The position numbers were made by a program. DNA of 64,000 bases from an uncultured Verrucomicrobiae bacterium. Its GTDB lineage: Bacteria; Verrucomicrobiota; Verrucomicrobiia; Chthoniobacterales; JAFAMB01. Location of the stretch: NCBI GenBank assembly GCA_963762565.1, contig CAVXLD010000001.1, positions 608,001 to 672,000 of the forward strand, in the 5' to 3' direction. Shown in pieces: positions 33,001-39,000 of the stretch (position 1 is its first letter; every line of letters starts with the position of its first letter).

Positions 33001-36000
33001 GGTGGGAGAAACAAAACCAATCTGGAGGTGTGCTGGCTCCTTATCGCTGCTCAGATCAAGACTGTACCGGCCCACCACAGCCAATGCTGCGAACGTATGC
33101 TGAGCAGCGCTCATATCGACGTAGTCAGGATAATCAACGGCCATGAACGGGTTGTTCTGGTAAGGCTCACAAACCCGGACCAGCCGATCAGGCTCCGGAT
33201 ACGGCAGCGGCTTAAGGATAACCGCATCGATCAAGCTGAAGATGGCGGTGTTAGTCCCGATGCCGAAGCCCAGGATGAGGACGGCTATGATGGTGAAACC
33301 TGGCGATTTTAGCAGGACGCGGATGTTTTGGCGGAGATGGCGCACGGGGGAGTAAGAGGTGAAAAGTGAAAGGTTAGAGGTGAAAGGTTAGTAATCAGTA
33401 GGTCAGTGATCAGTGCGGGAGCTAGGAGTCTGTCTTTGTTTGTGATCTTTGTGTTCTTTTGCGGCTATCTGTCATTTGGGATTTGTCATCTGTCATGCGC
33501 TTCGCCTTGGCTATCGGCTATTGATCATGCGCGTAGCGGCCCCTGGGTCCGGTTGGCCGGTGATGGTAAATCCCGGCGATTTGAGCAATAGCCGGAGCGT
33601 GTAACGCAAGGACGGCAGTAGGCGATCCATGGTTTTGCGAGGGTTGTCCTGTTATTAGGGCGCAGCTTACATGCCAACTCGATACCGGCAGACATCGGCG
33701 CCGGTAGAGATGCTAAAAAATTATATCTCTACCGATAAACTCTTGTGCTAGAGAACTAGTCGCGTGCAGAGCAGTACTCGGGACCAAAAGCCACCGGGGA
33801 CTCGAATGTCCCAAAATGAGAGCAATTTGTCTCATTTTGAGACGCTAACTTACGAAAGCGCTTCGAACACCAGTTGCAATGCGCCCTTAACAGCATTCGT
33901 CCACGCTGCAACCGTGGCTGGATCGTTCTCCTCAGGATCATCCCAATTTATGGTAAACGCGGTAAAGACCCAGCGGTTGGAAAAGAACATCCCACCTGCG
34001 TAACCTAATGCGTGGTCTCCTGGGTAATCAATACTGCCACCTTTGCCGAACCCGGTTGCACCCAACGGCACCAGCAGGCGGACTGCACCCCCAAGGCTTA
34101 GAATGAACTGAAAGGCGTCCAACGTTGCCGCAGCCAAGAAGAAGTCGCCGACTAACGCGCGGGAATAGTACGAAACTAAATCGTTCGCCGAGGACGCCAA
34201 AGTAATCGTATTGTTGAGGGGCGGGTTAACAAGTGGAGCGTTGGTTAGACTACTGGAGCGGAGGCCTGTCCCTAACCAGCATCATCCGAACAGCTTGATG
34301 GGGATCCGCTAAACCCGATTTTGGTAAATTGTTGGGCATATTTCTCCGCCCAGTCGCCGTTCTCGGATTCGTTTTAACCGAGGTGAATCCAGACAGACTT
34401 TGTATGCGTGACGGTCAGCAAAGTTTCAAGACATTTATCTCGTCCGGTGCCGGACTGTTTGAACCCGCCCCAAGGCTGAGTCATATCGCCGTGGTCAAAG
34501 CAGTTAACCCAAATCACGCCGGCATCGATGTCCCTGGCCATTTTGTGAGCTGCGGTCACATCAGAGGTCCAGATCCCGGCAGCAAGGCCGTATATCGAAT
34601 CGTTGGCGATATTTACGGCCTCATCGAGGGTCGAGAAACCGAGTACGGCGCCAACTGGTCCAAAGATCTCTTCCTTGGCGATCTGCATCTGATTGTTCAC
34701 TTCGCTAAACAAGGTCGGCGCCACATAGGAGCCGCGGTTGTAGCCTGCAGGGATATTTCCCCCAAGCACGAGTTCAGCACCCTCTGTTTTGCCGATATCA
34801 ATAAACGAAAGAACCTTTTGTTGTTGGCTCCGGCTTACCAGAGGGCCCATGGTGGTAGCGGGATCAAGCGGATCACCTAATCGTACCGTTGCTCCTACTT
34901 TTTCCTTAAATCGTTCGATGAATTCGTGGCGAATAGTCCCGTCGACTAAAATCCGGGATCCGGCGCTGCACATCTCGCCTTTGTTCCCGTAGATTCCGTT
35001 GACCGCGTAGGCGACGGCGACGTCTAGATCTGGAACCTGGGCGGTGATGATCTGCGGTGATTTACCGCCGGTTTCCACCGTAACGCGTTTCAGGTTCGAT
35101 TCACCTGCGTAAACCATCATTAATTTGCCGACCGTGGTGGAGCCAGTGAAGCTGATTTTGTCGACATCCATGTGTAGAGCCAGCGCTTTCCCGACAATGC
35201 TACCGGCACCGTGCACTACGTTGAATACGCCCGGCGGGCCGCCGGCCTCCACGAACAGTTGAGCCAAGAGGGTAGAGGATAACGGTGATAGTTCGGCCGG
35301 CTTCAGCACGACGGAGTTACCTGCCGCTAACGCCGGGGCCACCTTCCAGGCGTTCATCAGTAACGGATAGTTCCAAGGTGTGATACACGCCACTACCCCC
35401 AGCGGCTGGCGCAGAATGTAATGGAAGGCATCGGACGCCGTGTTGGTAACGACTCCCTCGATTTTGTCGATGGTTTCTCCGAAGTATTGAAAGGTCAGCG
35501 CTGCGGCTGGGACATCGCCCGTGAGCATTTCTACCACCGGTTTGCCAACATCCAGCGAATCGAGCAGAGCAAACTCGAGCGCATGCTCATCGATCAAGTT
35601 CGCCAAACGATAAAGAACCTCCATGCGGGCGCGTGGTTCCATGCGCGCCCAAACACCGGACTTAAACGCTTTGCGAGCCGAGGCTACCGCAAGATCGACA
35701 TCTTCGCCGGTCCCTGCCGGCACCGTCGCTAAGACTTGATCATTTGCCGGATTGACGGTCTCGAATCGAGCTCCAGAATTTGTGTCCACCAACTCTCCGT
35801 TGATGAACATGCGCGTTTCCGGTTTTAGGGCCGCAGCGTACCGCCGAAATTCATCGTAACTCAGCGCTCTGGCTTCTTTAGCGTTCATCGCCAAAATCCT
35901 ATTTAGATCCGCAGATTACTCAGATTACGCAGATTTCTTTGGGGTTGAGCTAAGGTGTTGCGTCATGGGACCAGACAAAGCGCTGGTGCTGCAAACTTGT

Positions 36001-39000
36001 AGCTCCGAAGTTGAAGACCAGGCCCCTTTGGTGCCGGCCAGCTTTCAAGTAATTTAGAACTTGAGCTGTCTCTACGTCGCCGAGTTTGCCCAAGGCTTTG
36101 AGCTCGACGATGATTGAGTCGTAACAAAGCACGTCAGCTCGATAGGATGAGCGGAGTTCTCGGCCTTTGTAAAAAACCGGCATCGCGGCTTGGGGATAGA
36201 AAGGAATTCTTCGATCGGTGAGCTCGAGTTCGAGCGCCTCCTGGTACACCGGTTCCAGAAAGCCGCATCCGAGTTCCTTATGAACCTCCAGCGCCGCTCC
36301 AATGATTTGATAGGTTTGATCATCCATGCGAAATAATAACATATTAACATAATGTTCTCTACGTCGAATCTCAACCCCGGCGGTACCATTACTCCCAAAA
36401 CAAAATCTGCGTAATCTGTGTAATCTGCGGATCTTTTCGTTTTTGCCGGTTTCTCAAAGATCGAGCACAACCTCCCGTTCCCCGCCGGAAGCGGTCTGGG
36501 CCAGATCAGAGCGAGGAATCGAGCAACAGAGCAAAACTTCGCCTGGGCCGCGCACCGCCACCGGTTCTTCCAAGTAATCGACTGCGCCGTTGCTAATGCG
36601 CGTGGTACAGGTCCCGCAGATACCGGAGCGGCACCCGAACTTCGGAGCTAAACCGATCGATTCGGCAAGCTCGAGCAAAGTGCCTTTGTCGCGTGACCAT
36701 TCGGCGGTGGTTCCCGATTTGGCAAACCGAACCCGGACCGGAGGAACGTCAGCGTGACCAGGCTCGATCACTGTTTGCGGCCTTCTTTCCGGTTTCAGAA
36801 CCGTTGCCGGACCGAAGGACTCGTAATGGATTCGTTCCTCCCGGACGCCGATTCCGGTGAGGCCATCATAAAGCGATTTCATGAAGGGCGGCGGACCACA
36901 GAGATAAAAGTCGTAGTCGCCAAACGGGAGCATCTGTTTGAGTGTTTCGATGCTGATCCATCCAACGGAATCGCACTGATTATCCGGTCCTGCGTCAGGC
37001 TCCGGATGACTGTAGGCGATATGCACTTTCAGTCCCGGATGCTGGCCGGTGAGATCCCGGATATGCTTGGAGAACGCGTGCACCCTGTGGTTATGAGTAC
37101 CATGGATGAAGTAAGCAGGTCGAAACTTCCCCGTGCGGCGCCCCTCGTCGACCAGGTATTCAGCCATCGCGATCATTGGGGTAATGCCGACGCCGCCAGA
37201 AATCAGTACCGGTATTCGACCGTTAGAATTGAGAATAAATTTACCCCGGGGTGCAGCCGCCTCCAGTCGAAAGCCGGGCTTTGCATTGGCATGCAAAAAC
37301 GGTGAGACCAGTGCGTTTCCTCCTTCGCGGCGGATACTCAAGCGATAGTGATCGGCATTTGGAGCAGCCGAAAGTGTGTAAGTGCGTAACGCAGGCTCTT
37401 TTTGCCCGGGGATCGTTATCCGAATCGGTAAAAACTGGCCCGGTTCCCAAGGTTGAAGCGCCTGGCTGTCCGGACGCCGAAAATAGAAGGAAGTGATAAT
37501 ATCGCTTTCGGGCTCCACCTTAAACAATTCTAACTCGACATAAGCGCTCCGCTCAGTCTCTGAAGCCGCTGAAGAGGTCGGAGCGACCGAGATCGTTTCC
37601 GAAACTCCCCGCACGTCTTCCGCCATCGATTTGAGCGCTGTCGCGTCGCCGGCGACCGCGCTAGCAACCAGCTTTTGAAAATGACCAACCAGATGCTCAG
37701 CCCGGGTCAGAAACCTGCCCCGTTCCGGTATGGCCGCTCGCAATCCGCGCTGGACCGAGTCGGTAAGGACATCATCTTCGAGGCCGACCTGAACGTTGAA
37801 TCCAATCAGTTCTTGCGCGAATTCCTGCGAGACACCAGGGCCGAAATACTGTTCAGAGAAGCCCTTCGTGCCATTGGGGCCATTTGGTATCCAGACATCG
37901 ATCGAAAGATTCGGGAACCCAGGATTGATATTGACCGTCATGTTTGGCCAGAGCAGGTGATATTGGGCTTGGGCGACTTCACCTCTGGCGTCGTAAATCT
38001 TGACCTGGCTTTTACCTTCCAACGCGGACTGCCGTACCTGACCGACCTGACTCATGAACCAGCCGTGCACACCGAGATTGTAGTTCTCCGGTAAAACATC
38101 GATCGCGGCGCTGAAGCCCGGATGGGCTACGGCGCAGTGATAACATTCGAGATAATTCTCGAGCATGGTCTTCCAATTAGAGTAGGACTCCCATTCTCCG
38201 CGCTCGTACAAAACCAGAGAATCAAGATCGATCCCGCTCCCAGCAACAATCTCAAGCAATTTGCCGAATTGGGTCTTTACGGGTGAGGCACTCGGATCTG
38301 CGTTGACAAAAACCCACGGGCCCAGCGTATCGACTTTGAGCGGCAGAAGCGGATAATCCTCAAGTCGAAAGTTAGGTTCTGTCGCCGTTCGCGGCGCACC
38401 CTTCAGGCGGCCCGTTAGATCGTAGGTCCAGGCGTGATAACCGCATTGCATCATTTGGGCATTTCCACAGCCCTTCATCACTTCGTGCCGGCGATGCCGG
38501 CAAACATTGTTCAACGCGGTCAGACCGCCTTCGTTACGGATTACCACGGCGGGGATACCGCCCACATAACCGGTGATATAATCGCCGATATTGGTTAGCT
38601 GTTTGAGCGGGCCGATGTAATTCCAGCTTTTCCTGAAGATCTGACTAATCTCTCGGTCAGTGATCGAGGGATCGGTATACCAATACGCGGGTAGGCTTTC
38701 ACCACGGTCGAGGCCGGCTACCAAGCCGGCTAGGTTTTCACTAGATTGGTTCATATTATTTTCGCTGGTTTTTCGCTATTCCCATTAGCTAAAGCTTCCG
38801 ATGCGGGTGCTGGCGTGCCTTTTATCAGGAGTGGAAGGGAGAGAACCAGGACCGCAGAAACGCACAACAAGGTTTGATAAAATTGGAGGTGCCCCGCTGC
38901 AGTTGCTACGGCATTACTGGCCATCATCCCTATGGAGTAGGCGATGTTGTAGACTGCATAGACCGCCGTGTAACAACGGAGCCCGCGCCGGTCAACCGCG

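Follow-up and report, generated by a model that had tools for sequence, protein, structure and literature searches.

A gene for a small putative nuclease of the PDDEXK_3 (GxxExxY) family stands alone between two inverted arrays of short tandem repeats in the DNA of an uncultured Verrucomicrobiae bacterium, and the whole arm-gene-arm unit arrived in a single insertion between two host genes that are tightly coupled. A decayed second copy of this cassette lies elsewhere in the genome, and the same design, with arms that track the protein clade, occurs in many phyla. We read the feature as a compact selfish DNA cassette whose own putative nuclease recognises its arms, with a probability of about 0.5; the predicted nuclease may spread both the cassette and its many gene-less copies.

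Organisation of the cassette

Positions are given within the window, the whole 64-kb stretch of DNA that was analysed. The inserted cassette spans 35894..36446 on the minus strand (~553 nt, the right junction being ambiguous by 1–2 nt) and is missing at the orthologous site of a congener, G003. The inverted arms that the survey's finding had placed around this gene were re-found at 36403..36434, upstream of the gene, and at 35905..35936, downstream of it, where the inner end lies 13 nt past the stop codon. Each arm is 32 nt long, and the two are 97% complementary and separated by 466 nt. On the gene strand the upstream arm reads AGATCCGCAGATTACACAGATTACGCAGATTT, equal to three ~9-nt units, and the arm units at this locus are GCAGATTAC and TCAGATTAC. 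A further 9-nt inverted repeat inside the arms (CTCAACCCC at 36370..36378, pairing with GGGGTTGAG at 35941..35949) lengthens the stem.

The PDDEXK_3 gene occupies 35950..36342 on the minus strand (130 aa counted from the first ATG); throughout the units of this family that gene is the entire coding content, with a median span of ~480 nt (n = 73). Two overlapping sigma-70-like promoter matches (36333..36374, minus strand; TTGAGA-17-TATGTT and TAGAGA-17-TATTAT) lie inside the arms directly upstream of the gene; these are matches to the consensus only, 2 being found against 0.5 expected from shuffled sequences. No terminator-like site was found at the cassette in the site scan. The flanking host genes share the orientation of the cassette: a Rieske oxygenase-reductase fusion upstream (36454..38754, minus strand; PF00848, PF00355, PF00175 and PF00111), with 19 nt separating its stop codon from the arm, and an aldehyde dehydrogenase downstream (34374..35888, minus strand; PF00171, E = 1.6e-163), with 16 nt between the arm and its start codon. 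In G003, the gap from the Rieske stop to the dehydrogenase start is only 13 nt.

The encoded protein

The 130-aa ORF matched PF13366, the sole Pfam match of the cassette protein (E = 4.9e-38; 130.5 bits against a cut-off of 22), and TIGR04256 (E = 4.3e-40; 136.7 bits against a cut-off of 35). The ATG at 36327, giving 125 aa, is the likelier true start, because the copy on contig C13 has a stop codon upstream of that ATG. The family motif (G27-x-x-E30-x-x-Y33) and the PD-(D/E)XK residues (D70, E80-x-K82 and Q94) are all present; 31 aligned sequences show no variation at G27, E30, Y33, D70, K82 or Q94, and at least 90% of them keep E80. The AlphaFold2 model (pLDDT 91) has a predicted restriction-endonuclease-like fold (Z 7.5–8.3), with matches to the BpuSI nuclease domain and to Cas4 at Z 7.9–8.3, and suggests a 125-aa nuclease core with no obvious separate DNA-reading domain. 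Two cassette proteins tested against the PADLOC defence and PHROGs phage profiles matched 0 families, and tblastn against 50,697 phage records returned no match.

The cassette entered as one piece

Contig C429 of G003 matches query positions 7–994 and 1548–2044 at 91% identity, with one base between the two segments, and its empty-site junction reads CATCGCCA/GCGGTTTCTCA. Comparison of the filled site (CGCCA...GCCGG) with the empty one (CGCCAGCGG) showed no duplicated bases at this one site. So clean an empty site in a 91%-identical congener identifies arm-gene-arm as a single 553-nt insertion that lacks a target duplication; it carries 11–12 extra nt outside the perfect arms. Since the empty site has neither arms nor a recognisable target, the insertion was probably not a case of homing into a pre-existing palindrome.

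The second copy, at C13:1371-1639, keeps both arms and both ends of the gene, has lost ~283 nt of the gene, and ends its similarity at the arm tips. At the locus of another paralogue, content differs among congeners exactly between the outer arm ends: it has the same orientation in G004 and G005, G002 has it inverted with an identity of only 71%, and in G003 a different element takes its place. G000 and G003 have both retained the arms at one orthologous site, with a core that is unalignable between them.

Family loci and gene-less copies in this genome

A profile search of the whole genome with PF13366 gave 14 matches, which resolve into 11 loci (9 intact and 2 broken) and one fragment, and tblastn added the remnant on C13. 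The survey's claim that the genome holds no further member thus nearly stands, with 11 loci recovered, but two remnants exist. Inverted arms, reported before at all 11 loci, were again obtained at 11/11 (20–107 nt by blastn-short of left against right flank), and at the C13 remnant too; the two broken copies still keep theirs. As a control, we built a crude ORF-based gene set and scored an exact inverted 13-mer common to both 300-nt flanks, which occurred in 185 of 6229 genes (3.0%) and in 9 of the 10 PDDEXK_3 loci called as genes (Fisher p = 1.4e-13), in agreement with the earlier 10/11 against 3.1%. That each paralogue has its own unit was likewise confirmed across the genome's PDDEXK_3 loci. 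Genes of 23S_rRNA_IVP, an unrelated small-protein family in this genome, have an arm type of their own with 7–8-nt units, located away from the nuclease loci; the arms are therefore not one generic vehicle for any gene.

At a threshold of at least 85% identity over at least 65% of the arm, the arm sequences recur elsewhere, as had been claimed, at 3–85 other loci each rather than at 7 to ~150, and only 1–54 of those are inverted pairs (54 of 85 for the GCAGATTAC-type unit), so that many copies are solo arms at these thresholds. Elements with GCAGATTAC-type ends number 75 in the genome, one gene-bearing and 74 gene-less, and their cores fall into 51 clusters; the gene-less cores are ~95 nt long, heterogeneous and mostly unrelated to the gene-bearing element. 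Because only the C13 remnant among them shares sequence with the gene, the gene-less copies did not arise from the gene-bearing one by simple deletion, and the internal-deletion derivatives seen were that remnant and one contig in run X7 only. Congeners G001, G003 and G005 (assemblies 78–89% complete) have the arms, but the gene of the query clade was not found in them. Elsewhere, a close homologue at E ≤ 1e-34 was absent from 17 of 23 genomes with at least 5 array hits (drafts, 89–100% complete); one genome, G086, has 75 array hits and no more than two PDDEXK_3 genes, each with different arms, and G311, G249, G192 and G284 resemble it.

Arm motif and its linkage to the protein

The arms are arrays of a 6-nt core, CRCNRA (here CGCAGA or CACAGA), repeated every 8–10 nt, with a conserved TTCACCAC-type tip. 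The spacing was 8 nt in 36 cases, 9 nt in 57 and 10 nt in 14, a period of 8–10 nt and not strictly of 9, where the survey described units of about 9 nt. At least two CRCNRA motifs were present in 68/73 arms, compared with 37/1460 shuffled arms. Positions outside the searched motif are also conserved among 114 arm ends from several phyla (A at −2 in 79%, C at −1 in 76% and G at +6 in 96%), and the arm motif is conserved far beyond the needs of the stem alone. Arm-arm matches were obtained for 73/115 comparisons within one locus and for 5/113 between different loci.

The arrangement had been said to hold in many phyla, and this was borne out both by flank matching, which gave arms at E < 1e-3 in 42/78 loci of the cross-phylum sample (20/78 also with direct matches), and by the motif test, in which inward-facing arrays stood on both sides of 50/77 loci and of 0/148 displaced pseudo-genes. 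In other Verrucomicrobiota, 22/28 PDDEXK_3 loci had arms. Protein identity across the scattered phyla is 54–67%. The closest foreign homologues (52–60% identity) carry ATCCGCAGATTAC or CGCAGATGA arms, those in a clade at ~50% identity have CACGAAA in their arms, and the L021 clade keeps TTCACCACAGAG arms from Verrucomicrobiota to Bacteroides finegoldii. A Mantel test of arm distance against protein distance, across paralogues and phyla, gave r = 0.33, a value that none of 2000 permutations reached. By crude ORF calls, the cassette gene follows the direction of co-oriented neighbours at 48 loci and opposes it at 9.

Discussion

We propose that the feature is a compact selfish cassette in which two inverted arrays enclose a promoter-like segment and a single gene, encoding a minimal putative PD-(D/E)XK nuclease. 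The nuclease would read its own arms through the conserved motif and the hairpin or cruciform that the arm pair can form, and would make DNA breaks; arm-bounded segments would then be copied, moved or converted by host repair or replication, both for its own cassette and, in trans, for the gene-less copies. Such nuclease-triggered copying or conversion would explain how arms remain conserved around an interior that is exchanged. Within an operon, the 32-bp arm stem in read-through RNA would likely be an RNase III substrate, as in 23S rRNA intervening sequences, and its cutting would make operon insertions tolerable. The discrete insertion, the copy at a second locus, the co-variation of arm and protein and the conservation of the motif partly support the interpretation offered by the survey. 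Several points weigh against this reading. Co-variation of arm and protein is also expected from physical linkage alone; unrelated gene-less cores, and array-rich genomes in which the cognate gene was not found, count against a simple driver model; the single clean insertion lacks a target-site duplication and has 11–12 extra nt; and the predicted 125-aa core seems to have no separate DNA-reading domain. Cassettes encoding a four-helix bundle share the layout and have no nuclease, and a nuclease may therefore not be needed for such a life style.

We consider it unlikely that the gene is instead a passenger, riding in the loop of array palindromes that are spread or homogenised by host processes or by another enzyme (replication slippage, arm-arm recombination, or a RAYT or IS transposase acting in trans) and retained because it aids cassette persistence through addiction, repair or defence, or simply because it decays slowly. 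The 74:1 ratio of gene-less to gene-bearing copies with their unrelated cores, the array-rich genomes in which no cognate gene was found, the 2 of 11 gene copies that are broken with arms still kept, and the occurrence of an unrelated non-enzyme family (23S_rRNA_IVP) in the same layout all favour a passenger; RAYT-like and IS families, presumably among this genome's genes with inverted flanks, count in the same direction. However, protein clades keep their own arm sequence across phyla with differing host enzymes, the arm motif is conserved in sequence and not merely in pairing, catalytic residues are invariant in 31 sequences, and the two cassette proteins tested matched no defence or phage family.

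A quite improbable alternative is that the element is mainly an RNA-level device, in which the arms serve as a double-stranded RNA stem in read-through transcripts, RNase III cuts that stem so that the cassette RNA is freed and the host operon spared, the repeats exist for the stem and the gene is secondary. The genes on either side of the cassette do run in the same direction, with 13 nt between them in the relative that has the empty site; its arms form a 32-bp stem, no terminator-like site was found, and the sense orientation prevails over the antisense by 48 loci to 9 where neighbours are co-oriented (crude ORF calls). The 23S rRNA element of Coxiella burnetii offers a parallel: the available parts of PMC4990558 describe an intervening sequence of 428 nt that RNase III excises, closed by a terminal stem of 28 bp and containing heptamers in tandem as well as a small ORF, and call it selfish and of unknown origin. 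Yet a stem requires no set sequence, and the CRCNRA core and tip are conserved across phyla. Since cutting of RNA leaves the spread of the DNA unexplained, this account complements the others and replaces none.

It is very doubtful that the arrays are immobile binding sites, the operators or regulon of a DNA-binding or DNA-cutting factor with a cellular role. They do resemble reiterated protein-binding sites, and are intergenic and beside gene starts and stops; against this, genomes that are 91% identical differ in whether they carry the unit, which was also copied to a second locus, is scattered among phyla at 54–67% protein identity, and is broken in 2 of 11 copies, a distribution that fits a selfish element rather than a conserved regulator. 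Chance or misassembly in a repeat-rich genome is refuted by the background (9/10 loci against 3.0%) and pseudo-gene (50/77 against 0/148) controls, and by the same layout in a cultured Bacteroides record and a 521-nt contig from an independent run that spans the interior from arm to arm.

The cassette that we favour, with its own arm-recognising nuclease, shares features with several known systems. IS/MITE pairs have terminal inverted repeats and one gene-bearing copy with many short gene-less copies, some of them internal-deletion derivatives. The cassette resembles them in its inverted ends, its one gene-bearing and many gene-less copies, and some internal-deletion derivatives; unlike them, it has no DDE transposase and no target-site duplication at its single clean insertion, and most of its short copies are not derived from the long one. 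Free-standing homing endonuclease genes, which include PD-(D/E)XK types such as I-Ssp6803I, are likewise small nuclease genes, and spread by cutting and copying during repair is possible for both; if the arms acted as homology, both the swapping of cores and the inverted G002 copy would be accounted for, although the cassette is not tied to an intron or intein. Tn7 uses a PD-(D/E)XK nuclease, TnsA, in transposition and has ends with several reiterated inverted protein-binding sites, and it requires a DDE transposase and several other proteins over ~14 kb, in contrast to ~0.5 kb and one gene here.

The survey had likened the arrangement to a RAYT gene among its REPINs, a comparison that holds for one gene between arms with gene-less copies elsewhere (1 among 75) and fails for the protein: a RAYT system is ruled out because the protein is a PD-(D/E)XK nuclease by Pfam (PF13366 only) and by fold, and no Y1 HUH tyrosine transposase. 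As far as the available parts of Bertels & Rainey (2011; PMC3116915) describe them, REPIN/RAYT systems also share a gene between inverted arms, many gene-less hairpin-capable inverted doublets, a separate repeat family for each gene variant, and an extragenic, widespread distribution; they differ in that a REPIN has a single REP hairpin, whereas the cassette arms are tandem arrays of 8–10-nt units and the gene-less cores are heterogeneous and ~95 nt long. The 23S rRNA intervening sequences with an S23p/23S_rRNA_IVP frame (Coxiella burnetii, Leptospira), on the partial account in PMC4990558, are alike in size (~0.43–0.55 kb), single small ORF, terminal stem, variable-number short tandem repeats inside the ends and sense insertion in a transcribed unit; the cassette differs in lying between protein-coding genes, in encoding a nuclease and not a four-helix bundle, and in its period of 8–10 rather than 7 nt. 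Location in helix 25 or 45 of 23S rRNA is ruled out, the neighbours being aldehyde dehydrogenase and Rieske oxygenase genes, and Rfam gave no match in 10 PDDEXK_3 loci. The convergent heptamer repeat pairs of Xanthomonas and Nostoc are intergenic-enriched (Rehm et al. 2015, PMC4692102, consulted in part), and these short 6–9-nt tandem repeats resemble the cassette units, which unlike them are not G-rich quadruplex formers. A literature search found no published description of the pairing of a PDDEXK_3 gene with array arms.

Tentatively, and with more doubt than confidence, PDDEXK_3/GxxExxY proteins would form a new class of sequence- and hairpin-specific nucleases that mobilise the smallest autonomous prokaryotic elements known (~0.48 kb), each clade reading its own 8–10-nt arm repeat code; together with S23p cassettes, such elements may have given rise to 23S rRNA intervening sequences and to much intergenic short-tandem-repeat palindromic DNA in many phyla.

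A small-nuclease cassette between inverted arrays

The nuclease cassette examined here is mobile and widespread. At the query locus, a Rieske oxygenase-reductase fusion, the nuclease and an aldehyde dehydrogenase follow one another on the minus strand. The nuclease gene (window 35950–36342, minus strand) encodes 130 amino acids and matches PF13366 (PDDEXK_3, E 4.9e-38) and TIGR04256 (GxxExxY, E 4.3e-40). It lies between inverted arms at window 35905–35936 and 36403–36434, which are 32 nt long, 97% complementary and 466 nt apart, and each of which comprises three units of ~9 nt reading GCAGATTAC, TCAGATTAC or ACAGATTAC. 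An extra 9-nt inverted repeat, GGGGTTGAG / CTCAACCCC, lengthens the stem of these arms, and the query unit folded as single-stranded DNA with z = −6.25 relative to shuffled sequences. Two overlapping promoter-like matches (0.5 expected) were located inside the arms just 5' of the gene, and no terminator-like site was present in the cassette. Translation more likely begins at the second ATG (window 36327), since an in-frame stop lies upstream of it in a second, internally deleted copy on contig C13.

Inverted arms are a feature of the family

The source genome (G000; 6.12 Mb, 15 contigs) contained 11 PDDEXK_3 loci, 9 intact and 2 broken, plus one fragment and one remnant. The survey's finding that every such gene sits between inverted arms held when left and right flanks were compared (11/11 and the remnant). 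Its reported enrichment was likewise reproduced against a background of 6229 genes from crude ORF-based calls: an inverted exact 13-mer was common to the 300-nt flanks of 9 of the 10 called PDDEXK_3 loci, compared to 185 of 6229 genes (3.0%; p 1.4e-13). PDDEXK_3 formed the largest protein cluster among these 185 positives, and the four-helix-bundle family 23S_rRNA_IVP contributed four. Arms of the other paralogues had copies at 3–85 loci each. The paralogue closest to the query (67% identity; L024:668-1562, G000 C11:64668-65562) had 107-nt composite arms containing both smaller hairpins and GATTACGCAGATTACG units.

A second PDDEXK_3 cassette occupies window 44854–45564, with arms of TTTCACAACAAAGGCCGCAAAGGCCACAAAG at 44854–44884 and its complement at 45530–45564; its gene (45061–45407, minus strand) is broken into two frames. 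Congener G002 has this gene at the corresponding site, and G003 has part of it there. The stretch 44854–44940 is itself a gene-less hairpin with the arms of this second cassette.

Beyond this genome, a pattern scan with two other paralogues as seeds (a 2-sequence alignment) returned 80 loci with 54–67% protein identity from Verrucomicrobiota, Proteobacteria, Acidobacteriota, Planctomycetota, Chloroflexota, Cyanobacteria, Bacteroidota, Chlamydiota, a Methanothrix MAG and others. Flank comparison of these cross-phylum loci gave inverted arms at E<1e-3 in 42/78 and direct matches in 20/78; by motif, inward-facing arrays stood on both sides in 50/77 and on at least one side in 67/77, compared to 0/148 displaced pseudo-genes. 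Of 28 loci from other Verrucomicrobiota, selected because their proteins resemble that of the query, 22 had arms. In the cultured Bacteroides finegoldii, the cassette (arms TTCACCACAGAGGACGCAGAGGACACGGAGG / CTCTGTGACCTCTGTGTCCTCTGTGGTGAA) occupies the whole interval separating radA from the following gene. Over 73 armed loci, medians were 480 nt for the outer span, 28 nt for arm length and 10 nt for the interval separating the stop codon from the arm.

Crude ORF calls at 109 pooled loci placed the cassette gene in the same orientation as neighbours sharing one direction at 48 loci and opposed to them at 9, and in the same orientation as its upstream neighbour at 74 and opposed at 25; this bias is consistent with read-through transcription being used for expression or being tolerated. 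The cassette protein had no match in phage records and 7 matches in plasmid records, all of them non-mobilizable. No PADLOC or PHROGs family was matched, and Rfam returned two sub-threshold chance hits over 10 loci.

Arms and proteins form specific pairs

The partnership between protein and arm is specific. The closest homologues of the query (52–60% identity) had arms of ATCCGCAGATTAC, CGCAGATGA or CACAGATTT; a clade ~50% identical to the query had CACGAAA arms, and the clade of another paralogue, L021, had CACAGAG, CACGGAG or CACGAAG arms. Over 71 loci, arm similarity was correlated with protein identity (Spearman 0.33; 0/2000 permutations as high), in a sample of two seeded clades plus G000 in which physical linkage alone would yield such a signal. 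Mean arm similarity was ~0.28 below 50% protein identity, 0.43–0.45 at 50–70% and 0.71 above 70%.

At least two CRCNRA cores were found in 68/73 arms compared to 37/1460 shuffled arms, spaced by 8 nt (36 times), 9 nt (57 times) or 10 nt (14 times). Conservation across phyla extended outside the search motif, the first core being preceded by TT(C/A)AC and followed by G; over 114 arm ends, A occurred at −2 in 79%, C at −1 in 76% and G at +6 in 96%. The two arms of a locus matched each other in 73/115 comparisons, far more often than arms taken from different loci (5/113). This motif conservation, together with the matching of arms within loci, indicates that the arms keep a sequence code as well as their complementarity within the locus.

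Array-rich genomes and gene-less copies

The survey had proposed these nucleases as drivers, or resident cargo, of the array palindromes. The pairing of nuclease and array was confirmed and extended here; the step beyond partner to driver can only be inferred. Of the 301 Verrucomicrobiota genomes sampled, 106 contained a 16-nt array pattern (reversed control near zero). It occurred in 16/18 genomes with a close homologue (E<=1e-34) vs 89/282 without, and at least five matches were found in 6/18 vs 17/282, respectively. A close homologue at the same threshold was missing from 17 of the 23 genomes with at least five matches, which are drafts in which a gene may have been missed. In one Verrucomicrobiota draft, G086, where the same caution applies, there were 75 array matches and no cognate gene was found; it has just two PDDEXK_3 genes, each flanked by different arms. 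Array-rich genomes of this kind argue against a simple driver model. The GCAGATTAC arrays of G086 (L170-L176) are one-armed units in which a small GC hairpin and then AGGACTGCCAG come after the array, and they look like the arms flanking the gene in two congeneric genomes. These one-armed units often adjoined other array types.

The source genome contained 75 elements with TCC[GA]CAGATT ... AATCTG[CT]GGA ends, 100–300 nt long (mode about 125–155 nt) apart from a single one of 524 nt, which is that of the query gene. That gene-less copies are deletion derivatives of the gene was rejected for the bulk of them, since their cores fell into 51 clusters and only the C13 remnant shared gene sequence. 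The outer flanks were inverted repeats of other array types in 13/75 elements vs 2.8% of mismatched pairs, and therefore some elements are nested inside others. At one orthologous site compared between G000 and G003, both arm layers were conserved and the core was unalignable.

23S_rRNA_IVP genes have arms of their own

Inverted arms of 7–8-nt tandem units flanked 7 of 8 23S_rRNA_IVP matches in the source genome (C5:443047, C11:106043, C11:15998, C1:1345410, C7:441213, C3:44245 and C5:382164), the units being GTAAGCA, GTGAGAA, GTGATTG, CCAATAG and GGAGTGTT. Each of the protein families thus comes with a repeat style of its own, and we rejected the idea that the arms are a single generic vehicle for any small gene, as the units around the IVP genes are of another type. 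At one IVP locus the arms, of 126–175 nt, were made of GGAGTGTT units. The published account of the Coxiella 23S rRNA intervening sequence describes 428 nt with a 28-bp terminal stem, an S23p ORF and tandem GACAGAT heptamers of variable number, cut out by RNase III and of unknown origin (PMC4990558); as described there, it has the same architecture as the small-gene cassettes reported here.

Insertion, decay and exchange

Compared to the query locus, the orthologous site in congener G003 was empty: its flanks were 91% identical, window 35893 was joined directly to about 36447, and 13 nt separated the oxygenase stop from the dehydrogenase start. The flanks adjoin directly, and the insert therefore comprises ~553 nt, that is, the arms plus 11–12 nt beyond either one; this comparison showed no target-site duplication. 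Homing of the gene into a pre-existing palindrome was rejected at this locus, given the absence of arms from the empty site. None of the five congeners contained a homologue more than 68% identical to the query, so the query copy is a recent arrival. For further empty sites, 17–20-kb stretches were compared with G003 (76–89% identity); intergenic DNA was mostly unalignable, and one site was comparable.

The C13 copy retained the promoter region along with both arms and both gene ends and lacked ~283 nt of the gene interior, and its likeness to the query cassette stopped at the arm tips. In a metagenome contig from sequencing run X7, window 35940 is followed by 15 other letters and then by 36212; this deletion differs from that of C13, and the contig is an independent internal-deletion derivative of the query cassette. 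All four sequencing runs consisted of contigs, and matches of two contigs among the runs ended at window 35896. Contigs of runs X5, X6 and X7 covered the flanks and left the gene interior uncovered, and none spanned the cassette, so they do not bear on its presence or absence.

At the L021 locus, the congeners differed in what lies between the outer arm ends. The unit had the same orientation in G004 and G005, was replaced by another palindromic element in G003, and was inverted in G002 (L200/L203, G002:C118:10464-10967 vs L021:603-1112), at only 71% identity compared to 79–83% for the flanks. Beside this cassette, four congeners carried a 287-aa gene absent from G000 (L198 and L201; G005:C32 and G003:C118 among the loci). 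At the site of another paralogue, L027, an additional 5.5–5.7 kb separated one arm from the remainder of the site in G003 and G002 (L204/L205; G003:C778, G002:C339).

The nuclease and its significance

PF13366 is abundant, with 3362 proteins at E<=1e-5 in one search and members in 160/301 Verrucomicrobiota genomes. Full-text literature under GxxExxY, PDDEXK_3, PF13366 or TIGR04256 yielded incidental mentions, with no description of the arms, and a catalogue row that lists the family as 'Unknown' with multiple transfers (PMC3424549). A sequence search of solved structures with the query protein gave no match at E<=1. Its AlphaFold2 model (pLDDT 91) best matched nuclease domains with a restriction-endonuclease-like fold, namely those of BpuSI (Z 8.3), Cas4 SSO0001 (Z 7.9; Foldseek E 5e-4), an uncharacterised Spirosoma protein and R.SwaI; these middling scores establish the fold class only. 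E30, D70, K82 and Q94 were invariant in 31 sequences.

If PF13366 members mobilise or maintain their own arms, an orphan nuclease family would gain a function, and the known drivers of bacterial repeats would gain a new enzyme class. The origin of rRNA intervening sequences and of short tandem-repeat palindromes, both decades-old questions, could then be put to the test in a construct of 0.5 kb. In addition, the pairing of repeats with protein clades provides a natural collection of small nucleases, with target preferences that could be deduced from their arms.
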